Part shown: one piece after another, positions 18,959 to 36,519 of the stretch | How the letters are laid out: the number at the start of each line of letters is the position of its first letter | Position numbering within the stretch: position 1 is the stretch's first letter | Assembly: GCA_964459295.1 (NCBI GenBank) | Contig: CAYWLT010000001.1 | Coordinates: forward strand, 1 to 49,024 | DNA from: an uncultured Thermodesulfobacteriota bacterium | GTDB taxonomy: Bacteria > Desulfobacterota > WTBG01 | DNA length: 49,024 nucleotides | Reading direction: 5' to 3' | The notes under the pieces: model-generated | The model's input: the letters and a program-made list of their open reading frames with translations, nothing else | What the model was told of the DNA's origin: nothing | Databases searched by the model: none | Program-made: the position numbers and the translations under genes

Positions 18959-18966
18959 CCCGGCTT

Positions 18967-19014
18967 CCGGCGGGCGGTTGAAAAAGCGCCGGTCTGCGGT
19001 TTAAGCCATAGGGC
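18967..19014 (+). repeat. Dispersed intergenic repeat, copy 1 (diverged)
   Basis: CCGGCGGGCGGTTGAAAAAGCGCCGGTCTGCGGTTTAAGCCATAGGGC. It shares GCGGTTGAAAAA, TCTG and a GGG tail with the family consensus. Confidence 0.6.
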
Positions 19015-19061
19015 ACCGGGTCGTTCCGTAAGCTGCCAAATACATTGTTGTGGCTACAAAG

Positions 19062-19114
19062 CCCCCCCCCTTGAGCCACGAATCAGATGGGTTTTTTTCA
19101 ACCGCCGGCTCCGC
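19062..19114 (-). repeat. Dispersed intergenic repeat, copy 2 (includes a C9 tract at 19062-19070)
   Basis: The plus strand reads CCCCCCCCCTTGAGCCACGAATCAGATGGGTTTTTTTCAACCGCCGGCTCCGCC. It is nearly identical to the copy at 33964-34010. Confidence 0.85.
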
Positions 19115-19120
19115 CACGGA

Positions 19121-20122
19121 ATGAATATGCTGATTGAGTACGAAAAGGCATTAGCGGTATTTAATCGGTTTCAAGAAAACCAGAAAATCCCGTATCTTCA
19201 TCCGTACTATGTGGCGGCTGATGCCCAACGCGATGGAGGATTGACCCCGGGATTTTTTGTATACGAGGAAGAAAAGTCGGTTTTTTATCACCCCTTTCAT
19301 ATTGCGCCGGTAGCGGGAACTGGGTTCTTCGACATACAATCCGCCTACGGTTACGGAGGCCCCCTGGCAAACAGTAAGGAGGCGGGATTTCTGACCAGAG
19401 CATGGTCTGCCCACTGTGCCTGGTGTAAGCAACAAAATGTTCTGGCGGAATTTATTCGTTTTCATCCTCTGCTCCACAACTGGTGTTATTATCACGGCGA
19501 GGTGGTGGAGGAGCGCGAGACCGTGTGGGTAAATCTTTGCACCAACCATGTGTCGTCCGCCTATCGGGAGCTCGCCAGAAGAGGTGTGAGAAAAGCAAAA
19601 AAGAACGGGTTGACCGTTGAGTGGTGGAGCGGTGATCAGTTTATCAAGATATTTCCCCTTTTGTACGATATCTTCATGACCGAATTGAACGCGGATACTT
19701 TTTATCATTTTAGCAATGAATATTTTGCAGGAATCCTATCATGGGAAAAGGCACTTTGTGCAGTATGTAAACGGGGAGATGAGGTGGTGTCCGCGGGAGT
19801 CTTTTTGGCGGATGCCGACGCCATGGAATATCATCTCTCAGCTTCAAGTCCCGCCGCAAGAGAGCTCGGTTCAGTCTATTTGCTGATGGATGAAGCCGCC
19901 CGGCGCGGCCAGCAGCTTGCCTGCCGGACTTTACATCTGGGGGGCGGTACTGATAACCGTTCCGATAACCCACTGCTTTTCTTCAAATCAAGATTTTCCG
20001 ATTTGCGCGCCTCCTTCCGGATCGGGAAAAAGATCTATTTTTCAGAGGACTACGATCAAATGAAACGCAGATGGCAGGAAAAACAAGGTGTTGCCGCACA
20101 TCGGGTGCTCTTTTATCGATAA
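19121..20122 (+). CDS. FemAB-like / GNAT-fold acyl(aminoacyl)transferase candidate
   Basis: 333-aa ORF. FDIQSAYGYGGPL...AEFIRFHPLL...MEYHLSAS resembles the Acetyltransf_6/FemAB-type proteins seen in polysaccharide loci. Assigned by motif recollection only. Confidence 0.55.
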   Translation: MNMLIEYEKALAVFNRFQENQKIPYLHPYYVAADAQRDGGLTPGFFVYEEEKSVFYHPFHIAPVAGTGFFDIQSAYGYGGPLANSKEAGFLTRAWSAHCAWCKQQNVLAEFIRFHPLLHNWCYYHGEVVEERETVWVNLCTNHVSSAYRELARRGVRKAKKNGLTVEWWSGDQFIKIFPLLYDIFMTELNADTFYHFSNEYFAGILSWEKALCAVCKRGDEVVSAGVFLADADAMEYHLSASSPAARELGSVYLLMDEAARRGQQLACRTLHLGGGTDNRSDNPLLFFKSRFSDLRASFRIGKKIYFSEDYDQMKRRWQEKQGVAAHRVLFYR

Positions 20123-20139
20123 GCTGGAGGAGGCAGGGA

Positions 20140-20817
20140 ATGACTTGGGATCCGGTATGGGAAGAAGTTTTTAAAACACAGGCCTGGGGCAAATACCCGA
20201 CGGTTGATCTTATCCGTTTTGTCGCACGCAATTTTTACCGGTCAAAAGATCGTCAAGGCATAAAATTACTGGAAGTCGGCTGCGGGCCGGGCGCAAATTT
20301 ATGGTATATGGCGCGTGAAGGATTTACTGTCTACGGGATGGATGCCTCTAAAACGGCGATTGCCCGGGCGGAGGAACGTCTGCACCGGGAGTGTCCCGGA
20401 TGGTGTGGCAAACTTAGCACCGGAGATATAAGTGTTCTCCCTTTTCATGACGAATTCTTTGACGCGGTTATCGATATTGAGGCGATTTCCTGCAATTCCT
20501 ATGATAACGCAAAAACTATTTACGGTGAACTGGCGCGGGTGGCGAAGAAAGGCGGTAAATTGTTTTCCCAGACATTTGCAACCGGCTGCTGGGGTGACCG
20601 CACCGGTAGAAAAGTCGGTCACCGGGCGTGGATCGTATCGGAAGGTCCCCTGCTGGATAAGGGGTATGTGCGTTTTACCGACCGGAGCGAACTGGAAGAC
20701 CTCACCGGTGGATTTACACTTCATGAAGCGGAGCTTCTGACCCGAACCATGAACGGCATGCGCCATGAAATAAAGGAATGGATTATCATTGGTGAAAAAA
20801 AGCCGGAGCCCGCATGA
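20140..20817 (+). CDS. Class I SAM-dependent methyltransferase
   Basis: LLEVGCGPGANLWYMAREGFTVYGMDAS is motif I (E/DxGxGxG). GGAGGAGG RBS before the ATG at 20140. The ORF-track start at 20071 overlaps the previous gene. Confidence 0.85.
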   Translation: MTWDPVWEEVFKTQAWGKYPTVDLIRFVARNFYRSKDRQGIKLLEVGCGPGANLWYMAREGFTVYGMDASKTAIARAEERLHRECPGWCGKLSTGDISVLPFHDEFFDAVIDIEAISCNSYDNAKTIYGELARVAKKGGKLFSQTFATGCWGDRTGRKVGHRAWIVSEGPLLDKGYVRFTDRSELEDLTGGFTLHEAELLTRTMNGMRHEIKEWIIIGEKKPEPA

Positions 20818-21959
20818 TACCCCTGAGCGCACCCTCCCTCAAAGGAAATGAATGGAAGTATGTAAAAGAATGCCTTGACACCGAGTGGGTTTCATCTGTC
20901 GGGAAATACGTCGATGCCTTCGAAAAAAACATGGCCGACTACCTTGGTGCAAAATATGCGGTAGCATGCATGAACGGCACCTCAGCTCTACATGTGTCAT
21001 TGCTCCTCGCAGAGGTAAAACCTTCGGAAGAGGTCATTGTCCCTACGGTAAGCTTTATCGCGCCGGTTAACGCAGTAAAATATGTAGGTGCTGAACCGCT
21101 TTTTATGGATTGCGATGGATATTGCAATATAGACGTGAACAAAACCAAAGAATTTATCAAGACCGGCTGTCACGTGATTAACGGCAATTTAATTAATAAT
21201 ACCACGGGAAAAAGAATAGCGGCTATAATCCCGGTGCATATCTTTGGAACCCCGGTGGACATGGACCCTTTAAGGGAATTGGCGGATAGCTATAAGATAA
21301 AAATTATTGAAGATGCAACCGAATCACTGGGAGCTGAGTATAAGGGAAAGAAAACCGGGACCCTGGGCCTGCTGGGTTGCTTAAGTTTTAACGGTAATAA
21401 GATTATTACCACCGGCGGGGGAGGAATGATCATTACCAATGATGAGCGCCTGGCAAAAAAGGCAAAATACTTGATTACCCAGGCAAAGGAAGAAGGAACG
21501 GAATATGTCCATGGAGAAATTGGTTTTAACTACCGGATGGTTAACGTGCTCGCCGCAATCGGCATGGGTCAGCTTGAAATGATAGACGATTATATGGCGA
21601 TAAAAAGAAAAAATTTCCTTCGCTACCGGGAACTGCTGTCTGACCAGCGCTACAGCTTGTTGGACGAACCGGTCTATGCTAAGTCGAACCGCTGGCTCTA
21701 CGCGGTCAGGTGCCACGATAAAAGAGAAAAAGAATTTTTACTCCGCTATCTCAATAGCGACGGTATCGAAGCCCGCCCGTTATGGCATCTGAACCACCTG
21801 CAAAAGCCCTACCTCAAGTGCCAGTCATATAAAATTGAGCAGGCGCCGAGAATGCATGACATCATAGCAAACATTCCCTCTTCCGTGAATTTGACAGAGA
21901 CCCAGATCAGAGAAGTGGTGCAAGCGATGAAAAAAGCCGGCACGGCCAGTGGGGTCTAA
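20814..21959 (+). CDS. DegT/DnrJ/EryC1/StrS-family PLP aminotransferase (LegC/PglE-like)
   Basis: IPLSAPSLKGNEWKYVKECLDTEWVSSVGKYVDAFE...MNGTSALH...SFNGNKIITTGGGGMI (PLP lysine context). Confidence 0.9.
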   Translation: MIPLSAPSLKGNEWKYVKECLDTEWVSSVGKYVDAFEKNMADYLGAKYAVACMNGTSALHVSLLLAEVKPSEEVIVPTVSFIAPVNAVKYVGAEPLFMDCDGYCNIDVNKTKEFIKTGCHVINGNLINNTTGKRIAAIIPVHIFGTPVDMDPLRELADSYKIKIIEDATESLGAEYKGKKTGTLGLLGCLSFNGNKIITTGGGGMIITNDERLAKKAKYLITQAKEEGTEYVHGEIGFNYRMVNVLAAIGMGQLEMIDDYMAIKRKNFLRYRELLSDQRYSLLDEPVYAKSNRWLYAVRCHDKREKEFLLRYLNSDGIEARPLWHLNHLQKPYLKCQSYKIEQAPRMHDIIANIPSSVNLTETQIREVVQAMKKAGTASGV

Positions 21960-22034
21960 CCGTAATTGGGTTGCGGTCTGCCTCGTCCGTCCGCCTGCTG
22001 AAGGGCGGCATTCCCGCAGGGTTACAAGGGTTGG

Positions 22035-22529
22035 CTAAAGGGGATGGGTTGCTGCCTCTCGCTTAACCTTGGAAGGTCCGCCGGCAGGCACTGCATCTCG
22101 CGTATCTGAAAAGATAATATGGCGCACGGAATACACGCTTTCCTTTATGACCGTCTGCTTGGCTAATTTCTTCTCAGCATTGATTATAACCGGACCCTGC
22201 AAGTTAATGGTAATTTCACTGTGGTCGCGTTTGATGTTGACAATGACCACGATCAGGCCTCTGCCTGCATCCGTGAGTCCGATCGACCTTACCTCTTCTT
22301 CGGTTATTTTTATTGTGTAATCGGGGACAAACAGAAGAGGATCGGTTATGACAAAGGCGAGCGAGGGATCTTCCGTGGATTGTAGCCACTTAAAGGGGGT
22401 TTCCCTGTCAAAGTGGTCCAAAATAATATACCGTTTCAGGCTTTCAAACCCTAAAATTCCCTCAGGCAAGGTGAGAATAAGGTCTTCATCAATTTTTATC
22501 CGGCCAAAACGGGTTGTTTCTATCTCCAC
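22035..22529 (-). CDS. fliW: Flagellar assembly factor FliW (CsrA antagonist)
   Basis: RFGRIKIDEDLILTLPEGILGFESLKRYIIL...PFKWLQSTEDPSLAFVITDP is the FliW signature. Confidence 0.9.
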   Translation of the reverse strand: MEIETTRFGRIKIDEDLILTLPEGILGFESLKRYIILDHFDRETPFKWLQSTEDPSLAFVITDPLLFVPDYTIKITEEEVRSIGLTDAGRGLIVVIVNIKRDHSEITINLQGPVIINAEKKLAKQTVIKESVYSVRHIIFSDTRDAVPAGGPSKVKREAATHPL

Positions 22530-22578
22530 CGGGTCACCTCTTATATCTCATGTAGAAGTCTGCGCATTGTTTGTCTTT

Positions 22579-22818
22579 TCAGCGCTTCATATTCCTTTTC
22601 CAGAAATCATCAATCTGTTTGAAGTGAACCGGGCTGATGAGTGCGGCCATCTTATTTTCTTCCAGAATCCTCTGGTAAATTTCCTCGCGATGTACGGTTG
22701 TGCCCTGGGGCGCCTCAATGCCCAACCGCACCTGTTTTAGCTTAATCTCAAGCACGGTGACCTTTACGTCGTCCCCGATTGCAATACTCTCTCCCGACTT
22801 CCTTGTCAGTACCAACAT
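22579..22818 (-). CDS. csrA: Carbon storage regulator CsrA (flagellar type)
   Basis: [48 protein letters not shown]. Confidence 0.95.
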
Positions 22819-22937
22819 TGTCTGCCTTCCCTGTAATCGCCGTCCGGCAAGACACCCCGCCCGCGTTTAACAGGTAAAAACTGAAGGTCTCTGGTTAATG
22901 CATCCTTATAATCCACCTCCCTTTTACTATAAACCAT

Positions 22938-22977
22938 GGCCTTTGGCAAATTGTTTCAACCGCATTCATCCCGGCTA
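22938..22977 (-). repeat. Dispersed intergenic repeat, copy 3 (truncated/degenerate). Its terminal CTA is the flgL TAG stop.
   Basis: The plus strand reads ...GGCCTTTGGCAAATTGTTTCAACCGCattcatcCCGGCTA. The tail matches TTTTTCAACCGCCGGCTA with a 7-nt insertion. Confidence 0.45.
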
Positions 22978-25530
22978 TCTTAAAAAATTAAGCAGGGACA
23001 ATTCAGTGGTCCGGGCGGCGGTAGACATGACCGCTTCCAGCGCTATTCTCTGAATAGCAAATTTGGTCAGGTACTCTACCATGTCCGCGTCTTCCACATC
23101 CGACTTTAAATTACTGATCTCGGTTTCACTGGTGGTGATACGGTTATGCATTGCGTCAAGCTTGTTGGATCTTACCCCGATCTCGGACCCCTTGTCGACC
23201 AGGGTGCTCAGGATGTGATCAAATTGATCGAGCATGGCAAGCAGCGCAAGGCGGTCGTTCTTTTCCAGCGCTTCCTGAAGTACGGCGAGGGTCTTGAAGA
23301 AATCATGTGCCCCTTGGATGCCCAGGCCGGAAGCAGTGGTCCCGTCATCGATTTCCGAAACTACCGCTGCGGACCGGGCAGAGGTGGAATTCACATCCAG
23401 GGCGTTCTTTGCGGAATTGACGGTTGCCTGAATGCCGATGCCAAGACGATTAAGCGCGGTTAAGATATCGCTGATCGATTCAGCCCGGCGCAAGTCGATC
23501 TTTTCATTTTCAAGGCCGTTGGCAATCTTGATGCCGGTTAAGGTCAGACCTTTTCCTCCATTCAATGCCGAGATGCGGGTGGCACCGCTCAACGACGGAT
23601 TCAGGTCGTTACCATAAATAGTACCCGGTTTGTCGCCCACTATTCCCAGATCCCGGGCGGTGGGGCTGTCTGCGACCACCAGATTCTGTACGGGGAACCC
23701 GCTGGTGTCCCTGAGGACAATGCCATTTCCTTGCGTATTAAGTGCCGCGGTCACCTCGATCCCTGCGATGTTGATACTATTAATTACATCGGTTATGGTT
23801 TGGCCGGCAAGCACCGTCACCACTGCGGTGGTACCGCTTCGGTCGGTCATGGTAATACTGCCCGCCCTCACCCCGGCACCCCGGTTAAGGTCGGCCAGAG
23901 GGGTAGGGCTGGTGCCCGCAACCGCAAAACCCCGGTCCAGCCCAATGGTTCTTAGGAAATCATCGGAGGCATTCCCGGTCAGAGAAACGGTCGAGGAGAT
24001 TCCGGTGGTGCCCGAGGTAATGGTAAACTGACCCGCAGCCGTTGTCCCAAAATCTACGGCAATGCCGGCGAAAGAGGCATCATGGTTGATTTGGGCCTGC
24101 ATCTCGGCCGCCAGGCCGGTTGAGGTATAGGCTCCGGCCGAAATAACGATATCGGCCATGGCGGGAGTACCGTCAATGGTCAACCGGAATTTATCATTCA
24201 CCTGGTTGAGCACATTAAATGCGACCTGGTTGTCGCTGATGTCGGAACTGCCGGGCGCACATGCTCCTGAGTCAACCCGGTTAAAACCGAGGGTTTGCCC
24301 GGCAGTGGTTCCTGCCGCTCCCCACCTCAAATTGAGGGTTCCCCCATTGCCGGCATTGTTGACGATGGTAAAGCGGTTGGTTGTTGCATCGTAGGAGACG
24401 CTATAGGTATAGGCATTATTACTTTGGGAATCCAGGGCTCTTGCAATGAAGGAAGCAATCTGCTCACCGGTGTAGACCCGTTCCGGTGCCGCCCCCCCGT
24501 CGGCAATAATATTGGCGGTCCTATCGGCACCCCCGGCTTCCGAAAAAACGATCTCCGCATTAGTGGCGTCGAAGATAAAACCGGAGGTTACATGGGAGTT
24601 TCCGCCGACAAACCCGGCAACCGGGGTTCCTGCAAAAATGGTAGAGTTTGCCCCGTCGATACTGTACTCATTTCCGGCGGCACCCGCTTCCTTGGCTTCA
24701 AAAGTAATGGTCCCGGCAGCCGCATTATAGTCGGCGCGAATGTACTGATTGAGGTCATAATTATGGTTGACCGCCTCTGCAATCCCCGCGCCCAGCTCAT
24801 CCCGGGTGGGGTCGGTATCGGTGGTAAAGGCCGCTTCCAGTACACGACCATTGCTCAGTTTAAAGGTCACCCGATGCTCACTTGCTCCACTCGGGTCGGC
24901 CAGAATGGCATTGGTGTTTTTTGCGGTGAGGCCGGCGGTTGAGGCAGTTCCTGCGGTTGCTGCCGCTTCCGAAAGCGCCGGATTGAGATCGGTAACTAAA
25001 AATTCAGATCCTGCCAGATTAATTTTAGACTTTATCCCCTGCAAAATCTCCACCGTGAAATCGTCCCGGTTGCCATTATACGTTCCATCAGCATTGAAAG
25101 GCATGCAATCGGTCTGGGATCCGGCGAAGATATATCTTCCACCCAGTTTGGTATTTGCATAGTTAATTAACTGTTCGTATAGATTCTGCACCTGAAGGGC
25201 TGCCCCGGTTCTGCTTTCCCTGCTCACCGTACCGGTAGACTGGGCAATGGCTATGTTTTTCGCTTCGCCTAACAGTGTTTGCATATCCTGCAGCACCGAA
25301 TCACTCATGTTCAGCCAGGAGTAGCCGTATTTGATATTTTCCTTATATTGGCTTAACCCCCGGAGATCCTCCTGATAGCGAATTATGCGGGAACTTCCAA
25401 TAGGATCGTCTGAAAGGCGGTTGATCTTTTTCCCGGTTGAAAGCACTTCCTGAATAGCCTGGGTGTGGTTGGTGCCCTTTGCCAGATTTCTTATCAGGCT
25501 ATCAAACATCATCATAGTCGAAATGCGCAT
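22975..25530 (-). CDS. flgL: Hook-filament junction protein FlgL (HAP3), enlarged to 851 aa
   Basis: MRISTMMMFDSLIRNLAKGTNHTQAIQEVLSTGKKINRLSDDPIGS plus a flagellin-like C-terminus LSNLKSDVEDADMVEYLTKFAIQRIALEAVMSTAARTTELSLLNFL. Confidence 0.85.
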   Translation of the reverse strand: MRISTMMMFDSLIRNLAKGTNHTQAIQEVLSTGKKINRLSDDPIGSSRIIRYQEDLRGLSQYKENIKYGYSWLNMSDSVLQDMQTLLGEAKNIAIAQSTGTVSRESRTGAALQVQNLYEQLINYANTKLGGRYIFAGSQTDCMPFNADGTYNGNRDDFTVEILQGIKSKINLAGSEFLVTDLNPALSEAAATAGTASTAGLTAKNTNAILADPSGASEHRVTFKLSNGRVLEAAFTTDTDPTRDELGAGIAEAVNHNYDLNQYIRADYNAAAGTITFEAKEAGAAGNEYSIDGANSTIFAGTPVAGFVGGNSHVTSGFIFDATNAEIVFSEAGGADRTANIIADGGAAPERVYTGEQIASFIARALDSQSNNAYTYSVSYDATTNRFTIVNNAGNGGTLNLRWGAAGTTAGQTLGFNRVDSGACAPGSSDISDNQVAFNVLNQVNDKFRLTIDGTPAMADIVISAGAYTSTGLAAEMQAQINHDASFAGIAVDFGTTAAGQFTITSGTTGISSTVSLTGNASDDFLRTIGLDRGFAVAGTSPTPLADLNRGAGVRAGSITMTDRSGTTAVVTVLAGQTITDVINSINIAGIEVTAALNTQGNGIVLRDTSGFPVQNLVVADSPTARDLGIVGDKPGTIYGNDLNPSLSGATRISALNGGKGLTLTGIKIANGLENEKIDLRRAESISDILTALNRLGIGIQATVNSAKNALDVNSTSARSAAVVSEIDDGTTASGLGIQGAHDFFKTLAVLQEALEKNDRLALLAMLDQFDHILSTLVDKGSEIGVRSNKLDAMHNRITTSETEISNLKSDVEDADMVEYLTKFAIQRIALEAVMSTAARTTELSLLNFLR

Positions 25531-25600
25531 GCGCTCCCTCCCGGATGTCCCCTTTTGATCGAAGGCGGAGGCGTATCACGGCGCCACCGCCCGAGGCATA

Positions 25601-25648
25601 CTCCCCTTGAGCCATAAATCAGATGAGGTGTTTTTCAACCGCCGGCTA
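25601..25648 (-). repeat. Dispersed intergenic repeat, copy 4. Its terminal CTA is the flgK TAG stop.
   Basis: The plus strand reads CTCCCCTTGAGCCATAAATCAGATGAGGTGTTTTTCAACCGCCGGCTA. Confidence 0.85.
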
Positions 25649-27349: not shown

Positions 27350-27350
27350 A

Positions 27351-27883: not shown

Positions 27884-28120
27884 TCAATGGCTTCGCAGAT
27901 TAGGGCCCGGGGAAGATATGGCGGTACTATACAAAACTGTCGAAGATAACTTTTGAATCATTTTCCCTGATACGTCGTCCGCGGCGATAGTGTATGTCCC
28001 GGTTGCCACCGTTCTTTTGTATTGCGCCGCTCGGTCTTCTCGGTTCCCGGCGGTTGCTTCGATGTATACTACGGCGAAAAATCGGATAATCTTTAGTCCT
28101 TTATGGCATACTATCGTTCT
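27884..28120 (-). CDS. flgM: FlgM-like anti-sigma-28 open frame (78 codons) with no canonical start codon
   Basis: Not in the ORF track. Manual translation: ..KGLKIIRFFAVVYIEATAGNREDRAAQYKRTVATGTYTIAADDVSGKMIQKL... The segment NREDRAAQYKRTVATGTYTIAADDVSGKMI aligns residue by residue with the B. subtilis FlgM C-terminus [30 protein letters not shown]. Position immediately upstream of flgN is the canonical one. The only ATG/GTG/TTG in frame are too far downstream. GGAGGAAGG at 28125-28133 precedes an in-frame ATA and an out-of-frame ATG at 28109. Confidence 0.45.
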   Translation of the reverse strand, partial: RTIVCHKGLKIIRFFAVVYIEATAGNREDRAAQYKRTVATGTYTIAADDVSGKMIQKLSSTVLYSTAISSPGPNLRSH

Positions 28121-28309
28121 TTATCCTTCCTCCCCCTCGATAGCGGGAGCAATCTACCGGGTCGGCGATAACGTAACCTGCCCCGGGCAGCTTAAAAAAT
28201 AGGGATGCAGGACCGGTAAATGCCGCGGGAAGTGCACATGCTGGCACGTTGCAATGGCGAAAGGTGCGCCTGAATCGGCCGGGGGGCGGGTTGCAGGCGC
28301 CGGCTAAAA

Positions 28310-29119
28310 TTAAAATAACTGAGCGTACTGCCTCGCCTGGTTTAGACGAGTGAACTTTGAGGGGTCAACCACTTTTCCCTCTACTCTCACTTCATAGTGG
28401 AGATGGGGACCCGTCGAACGCCCCGAACTTCCCACCAGTGCGATGGGCTGGTCTTTTGCAACCATTTCCCCTGCTTTCACCAGGTTTCGTGAATTATGGG
28501 CATAGAGTGTGCTAATACCGTTGCTATGCGCTATCTCAACTACCTGCCCGTACCCTCTTCTCCATCCGCTATAGACAACCATTCCTTCTCCCGCCGCCAT
28601 AATTTCAGAGCCGAAAGGTTTTGCCAGATCGATGCCGTTATGGAAATCTCGTTTGCCGGTAAAAGGGTCGGTCCTCCAGCCATAGTGAGAAGAAATGCTT
28701 CCGGAAACCGAGAGCTCGGGCACCGGATTATTGTTTCTCATCACACGAGTCTTATCATATCGGTGGACTCTGCTATGGCGTGGTAATATCTTTCCCCGCT
28801 CGCCGGTTAATTGCTCGATCAGCGCCTCTTTAAGACCGAGTCCCTGTCTCAAAGCCATCTGCTTAGAGATCTCTTCATCCATCATCTCGGTAAACACCCG
28901 TTCACCTTTCCCGCCGTCAATCAGCTCTGATTTAACTACCGTTTTTCTCATCTGCTTCATAAGCTGGTTAATGAAAAGCGACTCAAATTCGGCACATGCC
29001 TCTTTTAGCTTTTGTGAATCGGCAGCGGACCCCCGTTTGTGATGTGCTTCCGTCTTTTCCATTGTAAGCACTTTTGCGGTAAGCGGGGGCGTATATGATA
29101 GAGAGGTAAGTTTAGTCAT
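28310..29119 (-). CDS. flgJ: FlgJ-like rod-binding domain fused to an M23 (LytM) metallopeptidase
   Basis: N-terminal half ACAEFESLFINQLMKQMRKT (rod-binding/FlgJ_N). C-terminal half HNGIDLAKPFGSEIMAAGEGMVVYSG...GPHLHYEVRVEG (M23 HxxxD / HxH motifs). Confidence 0.8.
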   Translation of the reverse strand: MTKLTSLSYTPPLTAKVLTMEKTEAHHKRGSAADSQKLKEACAEFESLFINQLMKQMRKTVVKSELIDGGKGERVFTEMMDEEISKQMALRQGLGLKEALIEQLTGERGKILPRHSRVHRYDKTRVMRNNNPVPELSVSGSISSHYGWRTDPFTGKRDFHNGIDLAKPFGSEIMAAGEGMVVYSGWRRGYGQVVEIAHSNGISTLYAHNSRNLVKAGEMVAKDQPIALVGSSGRSTGPHLHYEVRVEGKVVDPSKFTRLNQARQYAQLF

Positions 29120-29121
29120 TT

Positions 29122-30228
29122 TTAAATAATCACCAGCTCAGCCTGCAGGGCACCGGCAGCTCTGATTGCCTGGAAAATAGAAATCAAATCACGGGGAGAA
29201 ACGCCTATCGCGTTTAAACCCCGGACAACTTCTCCTAAGTTAGCCCCCTGAGGAATAACAACCAACTTTCTTGTCTCTTCCTGGGCGGTCAGCGCGGTTT
29301 CAGGGGTAATCACTGTCTCACCCTCGGAGAAGGGGAGCGGCTGCGATACTCGTTCGGTTTCCTTGATAATGACACTCAGGTTGCCGTGAGCAACAGCAAC
29401 CGTGGATATTCTCACATTCTCACCCATAATCACTGTTCCGGTTCGCTCATTGAGCACAACTTTGGCAACCGCATCCGGCGCAATTTCCAGATTTTCCACC
29501 TGGGATATAAACCCCACTACATTTTTCAGGCAGTTGGCGGGGATTGCGATCTCCACCGTACCGGCATCAACCGATTGTGCCAGCACTTCCCCGAAACTCA
29601 GGTTGACCGCGGTAGCGAGACGCTGCGAGGTGGTAAAATCGGGATTATTCAAATTTAATGAAATCTTCTCTCTATCCGCCAGGTGCAAGGACAAATCCTT
29701 TTCCACAATAGCTCCTCCCGGGATGTAGCCTACGGTGGGATGGTTTTTCTGAACCCCTCCTCCCGCTGCGCCACCGGCGGAAAATCCTCCGATAGAAATG
29801 GGACCCTGAGCCACCGCATACACATTGTTATCGGGGGCTGCGAGCGGGGTAAGCAGTAGCGTGCCCCCCTGCAGGTCCTTGGCGTTACCCATGGAAGAAA
29901 CTACCACGTCGATTTGTGTTCCTACTTTGGCAAAGGCGGGCAACGTGGCAGTCACCATCACGCCGGCCACGTTATCAAGGTCTATCTTCTTTTTATCCAC
30001 CACAATCCCCATCCGGGTCATCATATTGGCTAAACTCTGGAAGGTAAATTCCGTCTTATCATCATCACCGGAGCGTTTCAATCCCACCACCAGTCCGTAA
30101 CCGATCAACTGGTTGGAGCGCGCTCCCTCGATATTGACGACATCTTTAATCCGGGCCGCGCCGGAATCCTTCCCGGTCACCAGCAGATAGGCGAGTGCCA
30201 GGCCAATGATCATACTTTTTTTCATCAT
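29122..30228 (-). CDS. flgI: Flagellar P-ring protein FlgI
   Basis: ARIKDVVNIEGARSNQLIGYGLVVGLKRSGD... and C-terminus LNAIGVSPRDLISIFQAIRAAGALQAELVII. Confidence 0.95.
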   Translation of the reverse strand: MMKKSMIIGLALAYLLVTGKDSGAARIKDVVNIEGARSNQLIGYGLVVGLKRSGDDDKTEFTFQSLANMMTRMGIVVDKKKIDLDNVAGVMVTATLPAFAKVGTQIDVVVSSMGNAKDLQGGTLLLTPLAAPDNNVYAVAQGPISIGGFSAGGAAGGGVQKNHPTVGYIPGGAIVEKDLSLHLADREKISLNLNNPDFTTSQRLATAVNLSFGEVLAQSVDAGTVEIAIPANCLKNVVGFISQVENLEIAPDAVAKVVLNERTGTVIMGENVRISTVAVAHGNLSVIIKETERVSQPLPFSEGETVITPETALTAQEETRKLVVIPQGANLGEVVRGLNAIGVSPRDLISIFQAIRAAGALQAELVII

Positions 30229-30304
30229 CTATGTTCCTTTCGGCATGTCTCTCGGTGGATGCCACTGGTGAGCCATGCTATGCACGCTCGGGATAGATCA
30301 GAGG

Positions 30305-31042
30305 TTAAAGGGGATAGAGCCAGTCAAATATGCGATGGAACACTCCCGGTTTCTGCTTGTCACTGACAACCCCGGTCCCCGAATACTCGATCCGGGCATC
30401 CGCAATCCTGCTGGACGCAACACTATTGTCAAATTCTATGTCTTCAGGCCGGACGATGCCGCTCAACAAAATAAAACGTTTCTCTTTATCAAAGGTAACT
30501 TCTTTTCGTCCCTCAATCCGGAGATTTCCGTTAGGCATCAGGTCTATTACTTTCGCGCTGATGCGCGCGATCATCTTATCGCTGCCGCTGATCTTCCCTG
30601 ATCCGCTGTGAGAACTCTTTGCTGAACTGGTGATCTCCGGCTGAAAAGGGATGTCGTTTCCCTCGTCATCCTTACCCCAGAAGTTTTTCAGACCGAAGTG
30701 GAGGGGAGATCCCAAAAACTTGGTGATACTTGCAAGGATGCTTGAATCTCTGGCTGTCTTGGTCGACATCTGTTGAGAAACATTTGACATTTCTTCAATC
30801 CTAATAGTCAGGATGTCGCTTATGCGCCGGGCCTTGGTATCCATATACATTGATGAACTGGTGTCCCGCCAGAGCGAACCCTCATAGCGATACCGGAAAG
30901 GAGGCTGCTCAATGTCTTTTGCCTGGTGATCAAGATATTGCGAATTCGGACTCTGCCGCTCCAGGGGACCCAATCCTCCGCTTACCGCAATTGCCGGGCA
31001 CAATAATACCGCACCAAACCACACACATAGCCTCTTCTTCAT
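30305..31042 (-). CDS. flgH: Flagellar L-ring protein FlgH
   Basis: GSLWRDTSSSMYMDTKARRISDILTIRIEE...LMPNGNLRIEGRKEVTFDKEKRFILLSGIVRPEDI. GGTGAGG RBS before the ATG at 31042. Confidence 0.9.
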   Translation of the reverse strand: MKKRLCVWFGAVLLCPAIAVSGGLGPLERQSPNSQYLDHQAKDIEQPPFRYRYEGSLWRDTSSSMYMDTKARRISDILTIRIEEMSNVSQQMSTKTARDSSILASITKFLGSPLHFGLKNFWGKDDEGNDIPFQPEITSSAKSSHSGSGKISGSDKMIARISAKVIDLMPNGNLRIEGRKEVTFDKEKRFILLSGIVRPEDIEFDNSVASSRIADARIEYSGTGVVSDKQKPGVFHRIFDWLYPL

Positions 31043-31078
31043 CCTGTACCTCACCCTGTTAGCTGATGGGTTAACCCC

Positions 31079-31122
31079 CGGTGGTTATTGAAAAACTTCC
31101 ATTTGCTTTGTGGCTAAAAAGG
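31079..31122 (+). repeat. Dispersed intergenic repeat, copy 5 (inverted partner of copy 6)
   Basis: CGGTGGTTATTGAAAAACTTCCATTTGCTTTGTGGCTAAAAAGG against the consensus GGCGGTTGAAAAACACCCATCTGATTCGTGGCTCAAAGGGG. Confidence 0.7.
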
Positions 31123-31125
31123 CGC

Positions 31126-31171
31126 TCTCTTTGAGCCACGGATGTGTCACCATTTTTTCAACCGACTGCTA
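31126..31171 (-). repeat. Dispersed intergenic repeat, copy 6. Its terminal CTA is the flgA TAG stop.
   Basis: The plus strand reads TCTCTTTGAGCCACGGATGTGTCACCATTTTTTCAACCGACTGCTA. Confidence 0.8.
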
Positions 31172-32152
31172 GAAAATCACTTCCACCGTCTTCGAGTCCC
31201 TTACCTTGCCGTATACTTCTTTCTGGGAGCCTGTATTTATTACCCGAACCTTTTCTCCCTTACCGCCGTTATCGATTGCCATTCCTTGGGTGGTAATTTT
31301 TACCACATCCGACTCGGCTAGAATCGTCACCAGGTCGCCCCGCTTTACCAGAGGCATAGCCTTCAGAAATTTGGATCTGAGGGGATGGTTGATGTCCATT
31401 GCCCTCTGAGTGCTCATCCCTATTGCCTCCAGGGGGTCAGTAATAACGTCTTCGGGGAATTCTTTGAGGCTCAGCGTATCCAGCCGAATGTCATTCTGGG
31501 TGATGACATGATCTCTCGGTAAGGTCCGGTTGCATACCACCACTTTCTGGGATACCTCTATTTCGGCGTTTACCCAGATCTTTTTTTCCGCTTTCCCGTC
31601 CACCATAAACACCAGCCCAAGGGTGGTACTTCCCAGATAATCTTCATTTCTCTGCGGTGTGACCTCATAAGTAATTTTCCCCGCAAGGAGGGAAATGGGG
31701 CCTGCCGGTGAAATCCTAATAGATGTTAGATTTTGGTCCCAGCTCATTTTTTTGTGAATGAAGCTCCTCACGATTTCATTTATTTCTTTGGGAGAGATGA
31801 TAACCGTCTTGCGTGTCACCTCGATCTTTTCAGGAAGACGGAGGGCGATGGTATCGATACCGATACCATTTTGTCTCACCCTTGATCTAAGATAATCGGC
31901 GCTGATAATCCTCGCTTCTCCGGGGGAAGGCGATTTGCCAAGCGTGATGGATTGCAGCTTCTCCAACAGGGTGGTATCCCCTCCTTCGATTTGGGAAATC
32001 TCACCCAGTACAATCATGTCTGAGCTCACCTGAGCATGCGCCGGCACCATGACGGTGGTCACCGCCAGAGCCGGAGGGGTGCGGCATACGGAAAAGGAAA
32101 GCACCGCGCCGGCCAGCAGAAAAAATATTAATATCCTGAAGGACTTTTTCAT
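31169..32152 (-). CDS. flgA: Flagellar P-ring assembly chaperone FlgA (327 aa)
   Basis: Signal-peptide-like N-terminus. C-terminus VKRGDLVTILAESDVVKITTQGMAIDNGGKGEKVRVINTGSQKEVYGKVRDSKTVEV is the FlgA/SAF signature. Confidence 0.8.
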   Translation of the reverse strand: MKKSFRILIFFLLAGAVLSFSVCRTPPALAVTTVMVPAHAQVSSDMIVLGEISQIEGGDTTLLEKLQSITLGKSPSPGEARIISADYLRSRVRQNGIGIDTIALRLPEKIEVTRKTVIISPKEINEIVRSFIHKKMSWDQNLTSIRISPAGPISLLAGKITYEVTPQRNEDYLGSTTLGLVFMVDGKAEKKIWVNAEIEVSQKVVVCNRTLPRDHVITQNDIRLDTLSLKEFPEDVITDPLEAIGMSTQRAMDINHPLRSKFLKAMPLVKRGDLVTILAESDVVKITTQGMAIDNGGKGEKVRVINTGSQKEVYGKVRDSKTVEVIF

Positions 32153-32169
32153 GGTGATATCACCCTCTT

Positions 32170-32961
32170 TTAGCGTCTAATATTGTTTGCCATTTGCAGC
32201 ATCTCGTCTGCGGTTTGAATGGCCTTGCCGTTAATCTCGTACGCTCTTTGAGCTAAAATCATTTGCACCATCTCTTCCACGATACTGACATTGGACATTT
32301 CCAGAAATCCCTGGCTAATGGTGCCTAGTCCGTCTTCCCCCGGTGTGCCGGTGGTGGGGTTTCCGGACGTCTCTGATTCTAAGAAGAGGTTTTTGCCTAT
32401 TGCCGTCAACCCGGCCGGATTGGCGAATCGAGCTGTCTCAATGTTTCCAATCTCAGAAGGTGCGGTCTCTCCGGCGTTCATCACGGTTATCGTTCCATCA
32501 AGGCCGACGGTGAGCTGGCTCGCGTTTTCCGGTACGGTTATCTGGGGCTGCAGCAAATACCCATCTGAGTTAACAATATTTCCACTGCCATCAAGCTTGA
32601 ATGCCCCTGCCCGGGTGTAGGCGATCTCACCGTCCGGAGTAGTGATTTGAAAAAACCCCCGCCCGTCAATAGCAAGATCAAGCTCGTTTCCCGTCTGTTT
32701 GTAATCCCCCTGGGCAAAGAGCTTGTCGACCGCCGACACTTTGGCGCCAAGTCCTATCTGGTTGGAAGTAGGTATTTCAGTGCCCGTCGATGAGGCTGCT
32801 CCCGCGATTCTCAAGTTTTGGTAAAACAGATCCTGGAAATCAGCCCGGCTCCTTTTAAAACCGGTGGTATTCACGTTGGCGAGGTTATTGGCAATAACGT
32901 CCATATTGAGCGCTTGTGAGCTCATACCCACCGCCGCCGTCCATAGAGATCTTAATGACAT
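32170..32961 (-). CDS. flgG: Distal rod protein FlgG
   Basis: [48 protein letters not shown] plus C-terminus [36 protein letters not shown]. Confidence 0.95.
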
Positions 32962-32988
32962 GTTATTCCTCCTTTTAACCGGTGAACC

Positions 32989-33756
32989 TTAAGCCACTGC
33001 GGCTATTTCTTTGGTTGCCTGAGCATCTATTTCATCCAGGGCACGGATAACCTTTTGATAAGACTCACAGATCCGTGTCACATCTATCATCTTCACCATT
33101 TCCTGCACGATATCTATATTGGAGAGCTCCAGGTGGCGCTGTTGTACCTCGCTTACCTCAGCTTGACGTTCATTGGCGGTGCCTTTTACGTTTTTAAAAA
33201 GGTTATCTCCTACCTTTACCAAGCCCGAGTAATCTTCAAAATCAACCACTTTTAAGGTATCAACCAGCTGTCCGTCCACGGTTATCGTGCCGTCCCGGGC
33301 AATATCGATCGTTTTCCCTTCTATTAATATATTTTTCTCTTTTCCTCTTACCGGATGGCCACTCTGGGTAACAAGCTCTTTCTTGCTATTGAGTGAAAAA
33401 TTGCCTGTCCGGGTATAGAGCTCACCTCCGGGGGTGTTCACTGCGAAAAAGCCTGAGCCGCTGATGGCGACATTCAACTCGTTTCCGGTTTGTTGCATCT
33501 CACCTACCGAAAAGTCGGTGGTAATACCGGATAACGTCGGATAACTCATGCTCATTTTTCGGGAGAGGACTAAACTTCTCGCATCAGCGTGGTCCGTCGG
33601 CACGGCGGTATCCAGCGCGGGGTATGTTGCGCCAAAGTGCGGTTTGTCTTCCTTGTAGCCGGACGTACTCACATTGGCAAGGTTGTTGGAAAGGATTTCG
33701 AGTCTCCTCTCCTGCATAATATCGCCGCACACCGCCGTATACAGTCCACTGCTCAT
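32989..33756 (-). CDS. flgF: Proximal rod protein FlgF (FlgG-family paralog)
   Basis: GLYTAVCGDIMQERRLEILSNNLANVSTSGYKEDK plus C-terminus LELSNIDIVQEMVKMIDVTRICESYQKVI. AAGGAG RBS. Confidence 0.8.
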   Translation of the reverse strand: MSSGLYTAVCGDIMQERRLEILSNNLANVSTSGYKEDKPHFGATYPALDTAVPTDHADARSLVLSRKMSMSYPTLSGITTDFSVGEMQQTGNELNVAISGSGFFAVNTPGGELYTRTGNFSLNSKKELVTQSGHPVRGKEKNILIEGKTIDIARDGTITVDGQLVDTLKVVDFEDYSGLVKVGDNLFKNVKGTANERQAEVSEVQQRHLELSNIDIVQEMVKMIDVTRICESYQKVIRALDEIDAQATKEIAAVA

Positions 33757-33798
33757 ATATTCACTCCTTACGTTTTTAAATTTGTGGAAGAAAGAGAA

Positions 33799-33813
33799 GC
33801 AAAAGGAATGCCA
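33799..33813 (-). promoter_or_regulatory. Sigma54 promoter upstream of flgF (TGGCAT-N5-TTGC)
   Basis: The minus strand reads TGGCATTCCTTTTGC, with GG-N10-GC spacing exact. The -12 element is ~43 nt before the flgF ATG. Confidence 0.55.
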
Positions 33814-33963
33814 CTTTTCCCAAGATAAAGAAATAGTTTAACCAATTGTAAAAACGGCGTATTTTGTTTTTTCGTTTTCGAGTCACGATCGCGAGCCCTT
33901 TATAACCGCCGCCCGGCAGGTATTTTTTTCCTACCTAAACTTGGACCGTATATCCGGAAACAT

Positions 33964-34010
33964 CCTTTTGAGCCACGAATCAGATGGGTGTTTTTCAACA
34001 GCCTGCTGGA
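33964..34010 (-). repeat. Dispersed intergenic repeat, copy 7
   Basis: The plus strand reads CCTTTTGAGCCACGAATCAGATGGGTGTTTTTCAACAGCCTGCTGGA. Confidence 0.85.
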
Positions 34011-34090
34011 AGCGGTTCGGAATAGCCTGTTTCAGCGGGCGTCGGTAGAAGCAATATGGAGAGCGCAGGATACGGGTTCAGTGGAAACAA

Positions 34091-34390
34091 TCAATTACCG
34101 CAGATGCGCTTTTCCATGTACTTCCGGTTGAGATGGCAGACAAAGGCTAGTAATTCCGCTACCACCGGGTACACAGCAGGAGGAATCTGTTCATCCAGTT
34201 CTAGCCGGGAAAGAATCTCGATCAGGTCCGGATCATCCTTGAGGGGAATATGGTGCTTCCGGGCAAGGGCAATTATCTTCTCCGCAATAAACCCCTGCCC
34301 CTTTGCCGTAACCAAAGGCGTCTTCCATAGAGAAGGCTCATATTGTAAGGCTACGGCCTTTTTTAGTGATCTTTTCTCTTTTCCGCCCAT
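34091..34390 (-). CDS. FlhB C-terminal-domain-like protein (EscU/YscU/HrcU switch family; YlqH/FlhX type)
   Basis: KKAVALQYEPSLWKTPLVTAKGQGFIAEKIIALARKHHIPLKDDPDLIEIL...IPPAVYPVVAELLAFV. Confidence 0.85.
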   Translation of the reverse strand: MGGKEKRSLKKAVALQYEPSLWKTPLVTAKGQGFIAEKIIALARKHHIPLKDDPDLIEILSRLELDEQIPPAVYPVVAELLAFVCHLNRKYMEKRICGN

Positions 34391-34486
34391 TGCTTACTAC
34401 CCGAAGGAAAATCCGAAACAGTTGAAGAACGCTTTTTTACACTAGAAGGTTGCACGTCATGGGAATGCTAAGACTATTGGGTCTTC

Positions 34487-34810
34487 TCATGCCGTAATAT
34501 CAAGCAGCTTCATGGTTAGCAGAGAAAAGCCCTTAAGCGCACTCGGGTCCTGATCTTCCTTTGGGTCACCTTTTTTTACTTCACCGGAAAGCTGCTCCAC
34601 CCGGTAGCCGAAGGATTCAAGCCGGCGGCATAGTTCGGATGAATATTGTAGCACAAAATCGGCAACCTCTTTATTGCCTACCCGGATTGTACAGTGAATC
34701 TTCTTTTTCATTACGCGGGTATCAATTCTCTGCGGACCCGGGCTTCTCATAGTGAGCAGGAACACGATATAAACAGTATCCCTATGGCTTTTCCCTTTTT
34801 TACCCCCCAT
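34487..34810 (-). CDS. FliK-like C-terminal (Flg_hook-type) fragment
   Basis: YIVFLLTMRSPGPQRIDTRVMKKKIHCTIRVGNKEVADFVLQYSSELCRRLESFGYRVEQLS follows the alternating-strand pattern of hook-length-control C-domains. The upstream open frame at 34750-34962 looks like its continuation in another frame. Confidence 0.5.
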   Translation of the reverse strand: MGGKKGKSHRDTVYIVFLLTMRSPGPQRIDTRVMKKKIHCTIRVGNKEVADFVLQYSSELCRRLESFGYRVEQLSGEVKKGDPKEDQDPSALKGFSLLTMKLLDITA

Positions 34811-34933
34811 CCTTTGCGGACATAAAGCTCTGCGGTTTTAATCCCTTCGGGTAGAATCAGTGGAATTTGAACAATAAGCTGCCGGTCACTTTTTGCGGTC
34901 ACGCAATTGAGCAGTTGGTGAAGCTCAATCTTC

Positions 34934-35566
34934 TTAATCGATGAAGTTATCGCATCCAGTAATTAAGGATAATGCTTTCTGCTCCAACATCCCTTCTGGG
35001 ATAAGGTTCAAAACCACCCGGGGATGGGTCTGCACTACTCTGGCGAGCACCTGCTGCCCCGCTTTCAGGCAGGCAGTACTATCAACCGCAACCTTGAATC
35101 CTCTAAACGTAACCTGAAATATATGATCAGCAATATCCTTCTCCACCTTTCCCTGCAATACCTGTCCTTGGGCAATCTTCGCAACAAGGGAATCCTTCTC
35201 CGAAGGAGAGAGTAACAGTACAAGCGATCGGTTAACCGGCCGGTTTGAGGTCAGCCTTGGCGTGCAGAGAGCTTCTTCGTCCGGTATCGCCTCCCCGACA
35301 AGCTTCATCACTACCTGGGGACGGGTAGCGGCTACCCTCACTTGTACCTGCTGTTCAGGGTGCAGTGGAATCGTACACTTCGCAATCGCAGTGGTTCCGT
35401 TAATGTTGACCAACAAGGTGTTGTCTTCTAAACACCTCATCACCTTCGCCTCCAGCGCCTGGTCTTCGGAAAGTCCGGCAAGGAAGGGGCTTTTCACGGA
35501 GGAGGAAAATAAGAGGGAGCACGGGGGCTTATTAAGAGTGCACTGAACCGGTGTGTCGTCAGTCAT
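34934..35566 (-). CDS. FliK-like N-terminal fragment with two internal ~55-aa repeats
   Basis: Internal repeat ALEAKVMRCLEDNTLLVNINGTTAIAKCTIPLHPEQQVQVRVAATRPQVVMKLV // VLQGKVEKDIADHIFQVTFRGFKVAVDSTACLKAGQQVLARVVQTHPRVVLNLI. No obvious RBS. Position upstream of the flhB-like gene fits fliK. Confidence 0.45.
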   Translation of the reverse strand: MTDDTPVQCTLNKPPCSLLFSSSVKSPFLAGLSEDQALEAKVMRCLEDNTLLVNINGTTAIAKCTIPLHPEQQVQVRVAATRPQVVMKLVGEAIPDEEALCTPRLTSNRPVNRSLVLLLSPSEKDSLVAKIAQGQVLQGKVEKDIADHIFQVTFRGFKVAVDSTACLKAGQQVLARVVQTHPRVVLNLIPEGMLEQKALSLITGCDNFID

Positions 35567-35646
35567 CGGCGATTGTCATAAAAAGCATGTAGCAAGAATT
35601 GACAACCCTGCTTTCTGCTTTCCGTCAAATCCGATCATGATATGGG

Positions 35647-36069
35647 TTATTGTCTTTTAAGATTGATTGCCAGCTCGACTTCGCCTTGCGGCAACCCCAG
35701 CTTTCGGGAAATCTCTTTTGCCGATAATCCCTTTGCAATCAGGTGCGCCACCTTTCCATAATCACTTGCGCTTGAGTCCATTGCTTCACATTCTGCTTTG
35801 CCGCGATCAAGGCGGGTCTTGAGGACGACGCTTTTTCCACTTATTTTCCCACAGAGCTCCAGTGCCTTTTTTCTTTGTTTGTCTAGCTCTTCCGATTTTT
35901 TTATCAGTTGGTGCAGCGAATCAACCACGATCTTCATCTTTTCCTTTTCGAGCTTTGTCGCTCGGCGCAGGTTTTTAGCCTCGCAGATATAGTACACAAA
36001 GAGAACGCACAGGCCGGTTTCGACAAGCAACTGTAAAATCAGCCACAATTCAATAGTAAAGCCGGTCAT
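35647..36069 (-). CDS. Membrane-anchored protein with a C-terminal HTH-like tail (DUF2802-like)
   Basis: One N-terminal TM segment (IELWLILQLLVETGLCVLFVYYI), a coiled coil, then YGKVAHLIAKGLSAKEISRKLGLPQGEVELAINL. GGAGGGGAAGG RBS. Confidence 0.55.
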   Translation of the reverse strand: MTGFTIELWLILQLLVETGLCVLFVYYICEAKNLRRATKLEKEKMKIVVDSLHQLIKKSEELDKQRKKALELCGKISGKSVVLKTRLDRGKAECEAMDSSASDYGKVAHLIAKGLSAKEISRKLGLPQGEVELAINLKRQ

Positions 36070-36093
36070 GCCTTCCCCTCCGTTCGAAGTAGT

Positions 36094-36414
36094 TCATACC
36101 GTAAGATCCAGAATTGTACCCTTATCTGCTTCTTCGAATGCAGCCTTTTTTTGCGTATGGTCCTCTTCTTTTCCGCAAACCGCATCGGGCTCATAACTCT
36201 TCTTTTGTTGACCTCCTCTTTCTTCATCTCTGATTGCCGCTTCCTTGCTCTTTTTTGCATCCTGTACTTCTTTTTTCTTCTGCTCTGTCTCCTCCTGCAG
36301 TTGTTGGGCAAAATGCTTCTTCACCACATCAGCCTGCTGTTGCTGCACCTGTTGAATTTTTTCCAAGGTTGTTGATTGCAGCAAAATTTGCTGCATGTCC
36401 ACCGATCTTAACAT
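36094..36414 (-). CDS. Lys/Glu/Gln-rich hypothetical protein (106 aa)
   Basis: GGAGGA RBS 6 nt before the ATG. Low-complexity charged sequence. No family recognised. Confidence 0.45.
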   Translation of the reverse strand: MLRSVDMQQILLQSTTLEKIQQVQQQQADVVKKHFAQQLQEETEQKKKEVQDAKKSKEAAIRDEERGGQQKKSYEPDAVCGKEEDHTQKKAAFEEADKGTILDLTV

Positions 36415-36449
36415 CGACGTCCTCCAATGTATTTGTCGGCGAACTACTC

Positions 36450-36519
36450 TAGCAGGCAGTTGAAAAACGCCAATCTGATTTGTCTCTCAAAGGGGGAGGG
36501 GCTTTTCAGCCGCCTGCTA
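36450..36519 (+). repeat. Dispersed intergenic repeat, copy 8 (opposite orientation; self-complementary ends)
   Basis: TAGCAGGCAGTTGAAAAACGCCAATCTGATTTGTCTCTCAAAGGGGGAGGGGCTTTTCAGCCGCCTGCTA. The ends TAGCAGGCAGTTGAAAA / TTTTCAGCCGCCTGCTA can pair. Confidence 0.8.

Follow-up and report, generated by a model that had tools for sequence, protein, structure and literature searches.

The 49,024-nt stretch analysed here over its whole length, which we call the window (contig CAYWLT010000001.1, from an uncultured Thermodesulfobacteriota bacterium), carries a flagellar gene cluster and a flagellin-glycosylation island, in whose intergenic gaps a sequence of about 45 nt recurs. On the minus strand, flgF, flgG, flgA, flgH, flgI, flgJ, flgK, flgL and fliW were identified by NCBIfam models, and flhA, flhB and fliPQR were recognized further along from the sizes of open reading frames (ORFs), gene order and the Pfam calls on a 99.9% identical metagenome contig (L121; loci fetched for comparison are denoted by L numbers). 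The glycosylation island, which adjoins the cluster on the plus strand, encodes a LegC-type aminotransferase, a methyltransferase, a B12/radical-SAM enzyme and a PseD/TPR protein. The closest named relatives of FlgI are only ~60% identical to the protein of the window, and no record matches its FlgK exactly. An earlier note, made from the letters of this DNA, had pointed out the repeat and left its nature between a mobile element, an RNA element and a protein-binding site. Our analysis indicates that the 45-nt repeats are very probably copies and fragments of a non-autonomous DNA transposon, i.e. a transposable element of the miniature inverted-repeat type (MITE); what had been taken for a 45-nt copy consists of the terminal repeat and the subterminal left arm of a ~297-nt fold-back element. 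The sites in the window, named according to this reading, are as follows.

18967-19114 (−): internally deleted MITE unit with two arms, 148 nt, between the B12/radical-SAM gene (17537-18958, +) and an acetyltransferase-like gene (19121-20122, +)
22938-22977 (−): possible terminal-repeat relic, on weak evidence, starting at the flgL stop codon TAG
25601-25650 (−): solo left arm, starting on the flgK stop codon C-TAG (25646-25648); nhmmer E 3.4e-10
31076-31174 (−): short MITE unit of ~95 nt, two inverted arms head to head, between flgA and flgH, starting on the flgA stop codon C-TAG (31169-31171)
33963-34011 (−): solo left arm, almost consensus, with an flhB-like gene (34091-34390, −) on one side and, on the other, the flgF sigma-54 promoter and its enhancer-like palindrome
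36447-36519 (+): minimal MITE unit of 70 nt in the gap between fliL and a 106-aa ORF, consisting of a left arm and a right terminal repeat (TAGCAGGCAGTTGAAAA ... TTTTCAGCCGCCTGCTA)

The repeat in the window

When a 33-mer of the consensus proposed in the earlier note was searched for with up to three mismatches, two matches were obtained in the window compared to none in 100 shuffles. A repeat search returned a direct family of four members plus inverted partners, in which 19071-19110 and 33968-34007 shared 93% identity over 40 nt, in agreement with the near-identity that had been noticed between the copies at 19062-19114 and 33964-34010. The window was also searched by nhmmer with a profile hidden Markov model (HMM) trained on metagenome copies alone, from which the window sequence had been excluded. 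This model detected seven arms at five intergenic sites with E values of 3.6e-29 to 2.6e-5, and no further match in the whole 49 kb (19110-18983 (−), aligned to consensus positions 14-143, E 3.6e-29; 36443-36508 (+), E 2.5e-14; 34013-33964 (−), E 1.9e-13; 25654-25601 (−), E 3.4e-10; both arms within 31076-31177, E 2.6e-8 and 2.6e-5). Seven of the copies listed before, at 18967-19014 (+), 19062-19114 (−), 25601-25648 (−), 31079-31122 (+), 31126-31171 (−), 33964-34010 (−) and 36450-36519 (+), were recovered in this way, and all of them are intergenic as had been stated. The repeat is therefore a genuine dispersed intergenic one, but the count of at least eight copies in 18 kb has to be revised, since the seven arms represent five insertion sites.

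The two other proposed copies fared less well. The sequence at 22938-22977, described as a truncated copy, is borderline: its similarity to two of the window arms was reached by only 0-4 of 500 shuffles, but its match to the consensus was insignificant, neither HMM found it at E ≤ 10, and all it has in common with the local variant of the terminal repeat is TAGCCGG and the 10-nt GCGGTTGAAA. The flgL-csrA gap in which it lies is ~40 nt longer in the window than in L127. A possible degenerate copy at 28262-28306 found no support from the HMMs or from the shuffle test.

The window forms comprise internally deleted derivatives (148, ~95 and 70 nt) and two solo arms. The 148-nt unit has a strong left arm (19062-19114, −) and a diverged right terminal repeat (18967-18990), and when its plus strand is folded as RNA, the terminal inverted repeats pair with each other (−60.8 kcal/mol, z −2.6). 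In the 70-nt unit, the terminal repeats form a pair at 36452(+)/36501(−), and the hairpin has a stability of −34.8 kcal/mol (z −4.7) that was not equalled in any of 200 shuffles. The solo arm at 33963-34011 matches the 17-nt terminal repeat with 0 mismatches, whereas that at 25601-25650, which belongs to a ~100-nt insertion between flgK and flgL, has a fold that is insignificant (z +1.0). Only the 70-nt unit and the plus strand of the 148-nt unit folded clearly better than shuffles; the solo arms did not (z −0.2 and +1.0), and the small inner hairpin suggested for the repeat is mostly unpaired in the consensus fold. Nor is recent mobility borne out by the window copies, which have been truncated, have diverged from each other (68-93% identity) and are fixed in the population represented by the 99.9% identical contigs.

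Anatomy, target site and empty sites

The anatomy of the element became apparent from full-length copies in other contigs, of which 13, and later 20, could be aligned over ~300 nt; both the terminal repeats and the flanking CTAG are conserved in them. The full consensus reads CTAG-CAGGCTGTTGAAAAAC-ACCCATCTGATTYGTGGCTCAAGGGGGAGGGGCTTTTGACGCCACAACAAT ... ~115-nt core ... ATTTTGTTGTGGCTAAAAAGCCCCTCCCCCTTGAGCCAC ... GTTTTTCAACARCCTG-CTAG, bounded by terminal inverted repeats of 16-19 nt (CAGGCTGTTGAAAAAC ... GTTTTTCAACAGCCTG) with YTAR flanks (Y, pyrimidine; R, purine) that are mostly CTAG. The two ends, CAGGCTGTTGAAAAAC and GTTTTTCAACAGCCTG, pair with each other in nearly all 20 copies (alignment columns 11-25 with 304-325), and pairs of terminal repeats are present in ~40 units. 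The consensus folds into one long hairpin of −141 kcal/mol (z −10; 0 of 200 shuffles as stable), in which the ~115-nt core is non-palindromic, multi-branched and 85-95% conserved across copies. When the consensus was read by eye, only one short ORF of fewer than 20 codons was seen, and its G+C content was ~50%. Every copy was at most 320 nt long according to a long HMM, and the spacings between paired terminal repeats fell into classes of ~50-70, 75-90, 100-148 and 270-300 nt. Since the long HMM maps each of the short forms onto both ends of the master, these are internal deletions, which gave rise to derivatives of ~150, 90 and 70 nt and to solo left arms. The 30-nt core of the left arm has invariant columns across copies and is kept in every deletion derivative, solo fragments included.

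The target site was examined in 134 pooled ends, where the four flanking bases were Y (C 92, T 38), T (99), A (103) and R (G 103, A 20), and the tetranucleotides CTAG, TTAG, CTAA and TTAA occurred 43, 21, 14 and 0 times, respectively. Complete units showed six CTAG/CTAG flank pairs, which are palindromic and hence uninformative, four direct non-palindromic pairs (L140, L167, L171 and L180), one inverted pair (L072) and four mixed pairs. A 4-bp duplication is favoured because CTAA and TTAG ends are roughly equal in number and direct pairs outnumber inverted ones by 4 to 1; an IS630-like duplication of TA within CTAG may apply instead, as it leaves the same string in the commonest case. Of 115 element ends, 27 coincided exactly with a stop codon that closes an ORF of 100 codons or more, among them the ends at flgK and flgA. 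That so many copies start on an upstream stop codon would follow from selection against intragenic insertions together with the regeneration of TAG or TAA by YTAR duplication, and the consensus of the earlier note began with TAG because element ends coincide with stop codons.

These ends also bear on a different type of mobile element, i.e. short extragenic palindromes of the REP/REPIN type (repetitive extragenic palindromes, single or as inverted doublets), which are spread by RAYT, an IS200/IS605-like tyrosine transposase, and used by the host. The hairpin-forming inverted doublets and the singlets of the window superficially resemble REPINs and their decayed singlets, but the arm itself is no palindrome (z −0.2 alone), no palindromic unit of 20-40 nt was seen, the conserved GTAG head is absent, and the intact unit of ~297 nt encloses the non-palindromic core. 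The element has instead true terminal inverted repeats, YTAR flanks and direct repeats in four of the five informative cases, while REP elements are not known to make target duplications. A REP/REPIN origin is thus extremely unlikely, and of the phrase 'REP/MITE-like mobile element' in the earlier note the MITE half holds, with terminal inverted repeats, YTAR flanks, dispersed copies, deletion size classes and the filled and empty sites described below, whereas the REP half does not.

Orthologous flagellar loci were collected via FlgI homologues. Contigs L121-L125 were 99.9% identical to the window without gaps; they represent the same population and so give no independent information on polymorphism at the strain level. 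Three groups of relatives, L194/L195 (84% nucleotide and 86% FlgI identity), L126 (78% FlgI identity) and L127-L130 (76% FlgI identity), were collinear with the window but lacked the arms found at its junctions, and no copy was present anywhere in the fetched L126-L130 loci. The lengths of the two gaps were as follows.

flgA-flgH gap: 114 nt in the window, 36 nt in L194, 39 nt in L126 and 33 nt in L127
flgK-flgL gap: 115 nt in the window and 14 nt in L127; the L194 and L126 contigs end before it

Accordingly, the window has a filled flgA-flgH site where L194/L195, L126 and L127 have an empty one, and the flgK-flgL site, likewise filled in the window, is empty in L127. Between flgA and flgH, L194 reads ...GGATTTCTAG followed by AGTTTTAATCG..., compared to ...GATTTTCTAG followed by CAGTCGGTTGAAAAA... 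in the window, where the downstream flank resumes after the element, and the blastn alignment of L194/L195 to the window breaks at 31165, the insertion point. The flgA-flgH junction of L194/L195 is an empty site with a single CTAG, of which the stop codon of flgA forms part. Upstream of flgF, L194 has an element fragment in the orientation opposite to that of the window arm, and L126 and L127 have none.

Distribution, possible roles and neighbouring genes

An exact 30-mer of the arm was found in 63 metagenome contigs, mostly from wetland and freshwater-sediment samples, ~25 of which carry the conserved ~300-nt element. A loose scan of genomes with the pattern GTTGAAAAAN{13,16}TGGCTCAA gave mostly chance matches; among the matches listed, at least seven were true loci, located in two related Microflora Danica metagenome-assembled genomes (MAGs) named 'uncultured delta proteobacterium' (nhmmer E 1e-14 to 1e-8), and these show complete units with perfect terminal inverted repeats. 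Flanking genes belonged by Pfam to aldehyde:ferredoxin oxidoreductase, NusG, GNAT acetyltransferase, epimerase, GFO/IDH/MocA oxidoreductase, CobA/HemD, a spore-photoproduct-lyase-like enzyme, phosphodiesterase and response regulator, and a thioredoxin-like and an MnmE-like C-terminus were seen by eye upstream of two MAG copies. Judging from these assignments, the neighbours of the element in MAGs and metagenome contigs are unrelated to each other and to motility. A blastn search of the consensus against 72,556 plasmids, a scan of viral contigs with a 28-base arm pattern and a search of the full-text literature for four sequence strings of the element gave no match. Many metagenome contigs end within or beside a copy (L132, L134, L141, L142, L154, L170, L175, L188, L191 and L193), which points to the repeat as a cause of breaks when this lineage is assembled from short reads.

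The earlier note had also considered that the repeat might tune stoichiometry in long flagellar operons, i.e. act as a cis-acting RNA element of processing, stability or attenuation selected there to set product ratios. Several copies are indeed found in gaps between flagellar genes of the same direction, where they begin on the stop codon of the gene upstream. Stable hairpins are formed by the 70-nt and 148-nt units, as described above, and transcripts of other MITEs such as Correia and ERIC are known to be cleaved by RNase III or RNase E (PMC10969869). However, the elements are absent at the same junctions of otherwise collinear clusters in relatives of 86%, 78% and 76% FlgI identity, and elsewhere the family lies beside unrelated genes. 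In co-directional contexts, the strong arm was in the sense orientation 8 times and in the antisense orientation 17 times by a crude ORF-based call, so that no sense bias was seen. The solo arms do not fold, and when RNAalifold was applied to the 20 full copies, the fold-back was recovered with a covariation term of +0.39, i.e. without any compensatory signal, the copies being too alike; the covariation proposed as a check was in effect absent. Nor did Rfam provide a described family, as there were no matches at gathering score in the window and, in five loci that hold copies of full length, nothing but isrG, which scored 17 bits compared to a threshold of 100 (E 0.58). An RNA element selected to set flagellar product ratios is therefore very unlikely.

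Sigma-70-type promoters and intrinsic terminators were predicted in 18-37 kb at chance level and none overlapped an element, in line with the statement in the earlier note that promoters and terminators do not explain the repeat. Readings of the arm as a sigma-54 site, a sigma-70 site or a terminator were rejected, for no such prediction overlaps the elements. The sole exact sigma-54 promoter, TGGCATTCCTTTTGCT, occupies 33798-33813 (−), a position ~40 nt upstream of flgF that none of the elements covers. A palindrome, GGTAGGAAAAAAATACCTGCC at 33915-33935 (−), is located ~100 nt further upstream and probably serves the flagellar sigma-54 activator as its enhancer. Both the promoter and the palindrome are conserved in L126, L127 and L194 (GTAGGAAGAAAATTCCTAC in L126).

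One copy lies ~30 nt upstream of this palindrome, and the 30-nt core of the left arm is very strongly conserved even in solo fragments, as might be expected of a binding site for a regulatory or nucleoid protein of the host recruited to flagellar and glycosylation promoters. Conservation of a subterminal arm is, on the other hand, expected for a transposase-binding site and from recent amplification. The positions relative to promoters are inconsistent, as copies follow stop codons, separate coupled genes and occur in both orientations, and the arm is missing from relatives that share this promoter and palindrome. A host-protein site is hence highly improbable, and the suggestion that the repeat is a protein-binding site survives only in the trivial sense that the arm is presumably bound by the transposase. 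It is similarly unlikely, if slightly less so, that the core encodes a structured RNA for its own transposition or targeting (for instance, to stop-codon CTAG), or that the arm has been co-opted by the host as a regulatory site that clusters around the flagellar and glycosylation genes. There is no evidence that the window copies have a selected role.

Some further features of the two gene clusters were observed. The glycosylation island encodes an 897-aa PseD/Maf-like protein with TPR repeats (14796-17489, +) and a LegC-family aminotransferase (20814-21959, +; 473 bits compared to a cut-off of 420 bits), which suggests that flagellin is glycosylated with a sugar of the legionaminic-acid type. 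A second gene for an FlhG/MinD-type ATPase (2-613, −), at the window's left edge, encodes a protein ~70% identical to FlhG (38471-39409, −; tblastn E 1e-103), and this paralogue pair accounts for the DNA repeats D1 and D3 of the window repeat search. FlgL is usually ~300-400 aa in size, but it has 851 aa in the window (22975-25530, −) and 860 aa in the relatives L127-L130; the match of the window protein to the 387-position FlgL profile is mainly confined to the N-terminal 215 residues, and Pfam gives Flagellin_N alone for the copy in L121. The gap of ~420 nt between flgJ and flgN (27888-28309) contains no convincing ORF, and the corresponding position in L127-L130 encodes a 66-aa protein and FlgM (PF04316); the anti-sigma factor gene (flgM) may have been lost, moved or become unrecognisable in the window. 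In L130 (4188-5191, compared to 4368-5186 of L127), flgF is replaced by an opposite-strand 170-aa ORF and a 33-aa C-terminal FlgF fragment, which may reflect an insertion or a rearrangement or else a chimeric assembly.

Proposed mobilization and comparison with known systems

The family is probably moved by an IS5-like or IS630-like DDE transposase. Such an enzyme, encoded elsewhere in the genome, would bind the terminal repeats and the conserved subterminal left arm and insert the element at YTAR, with CTAG preferred over TTAG and CTAA. The target would probably be duplicated as 4 bp in the manner of IS5 and, less likely, as TA in the manner of IS630; insertions within genes would be lost by selection, and stop-codon TAG or TAA serving as YTAR sites would be regenerated by the duplication. 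The window copies would be old passengers inside and between the flagellar and glycosylation operons, probably co-transcribed with them, and the two-armed units could form RNA hairpins that affect mRNA processing as a side effect.

Several observations weigh against this interpretation or parts of it. All five sites lie in the middle third of the window (18900-36600), which holds 2298 of 6371 non-coding nt (post hoc P ~0.006), with none in the glycosylation genes at 1-18.9 kb and none in the flhA-fliP export-gene region. This clustering is unexplained by simple random insertion; it could be due to hopping over short distances, to greater tolerance of this region or to chance. Only five flank pairs bear on the length of the duplication, and the excess of direct ones is weak (binomial estimate P ~0.07); at flgA-flgH, the right end of the copy has decayed too far for a duplication to be recognized. 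In ~300 kb of fetched loci, neither a transposase gene with the same terminal repeats nor a pair of them at the spacing of an insertion sequence (IS) was found, and the type of transposase is inferred from the target site alone because no autonomous partner was found. A 1.8-kb pair of terminal repeats in L166 was considered as an autonomous parent and rejected, as it encloses glutamine synthetase-like and methylene-tetrahydrofolate-reductase-like genes, identified by eye, and no transposase.

Both candidate transposase groups were compared with the element. The IS630/Tc1-mariner elements insert at TA with a 2-bp duplication (PMC2170065), and the corresponding model, C-TA-[G...C]-TA-G, fits the commonest flanks of the window family, but it requires independent mutation of the first base in the CTAA...CTAA and TTAG...TTAG cases (L140, L167, L171 and L180). 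Among the fetched loci, no IS630-type transposase was found, and no transposase gene or IS-sized copy of the IS5 type either. Tenzen and Ohtsubo reportedly found in 1991 that IS630 prefers TA inside CTAG. The 134 ends give the same Y-T-A-R that IS5 duplicates (PMC5009759). The terminal repeat of the window family is not known to resemble that of IS5 itself.

Bacterial MITEs such as Correia (CREE) of Neisseria, ERIC and Nezha are similar to the window family in that they are small, non-coding, fold-back elements with terminal inverted repeats and a TA-centred target, and occur in tens to hundreds of dispersed intergenic copies in full-length, internally deleted and truncated forms. The intact unit of ~297 nt is longer than those of Correia (~104-157), ERIC (~127) and Nezha (~130-170), and the host lineage, uncultured Desulfobacterota-like wetland bacteria, is a different one. 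The terminal repeat of Correia is TATAGCGGATTAACAAAAACCGGTACGG, and no sequence similarity to the window element was seen. MITEs are often co-transcribed with adjoining genes (PMC10969869), and for Nezha, filled and empty orthologous sites between related species were used as a criterion (PMC3184786).

In the lineage studied here, the family explains puzzling conserved intergenic blocks of uncultured wetland deltaproteobacteria, which should not be taken for flagellar regulatory signals. As many contigs end at copies, a consensus and model of the family would help to mask repeats and to assemble MAGs in this clade. Because the element sits between genes that are only 14-39 nt apart in relatives (flgK-flgL and flgA-flgH), it also offers a natural experiment on the amount of hairpin-forming DNA that can be accommodated inside a flagellar operon.

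A further close parallel is Chunjie of Geobacter uraniireducens Rf4, which is likewise a deltaproteobacterial MITE with insertions in operons that spare the genes, many full and partial copies and a very stable predicted RNA fold. Chunjie (Chen et al. 2008, as summarised in PMC3184786 and PMC10969869) is 178-235 bp long and A+T-rich, with 21-bp terminal repeats and 9-bp direct repeats (PMC3184786), whereas the window family is ~297 nt long and ~50% in G+C, with terminal repeats of 16-19 nt and 2- or 4-bp YTAR flanks. The differences in size, composition and repeats indicate a different family and a different type of transposase. The window family, for which no match was obtained in Rfam, in the collections of plasmids and viral contigs or in the literature that could be searched, leaves the current understanding of MITEs unchanged and is a new family of a well-known kind.

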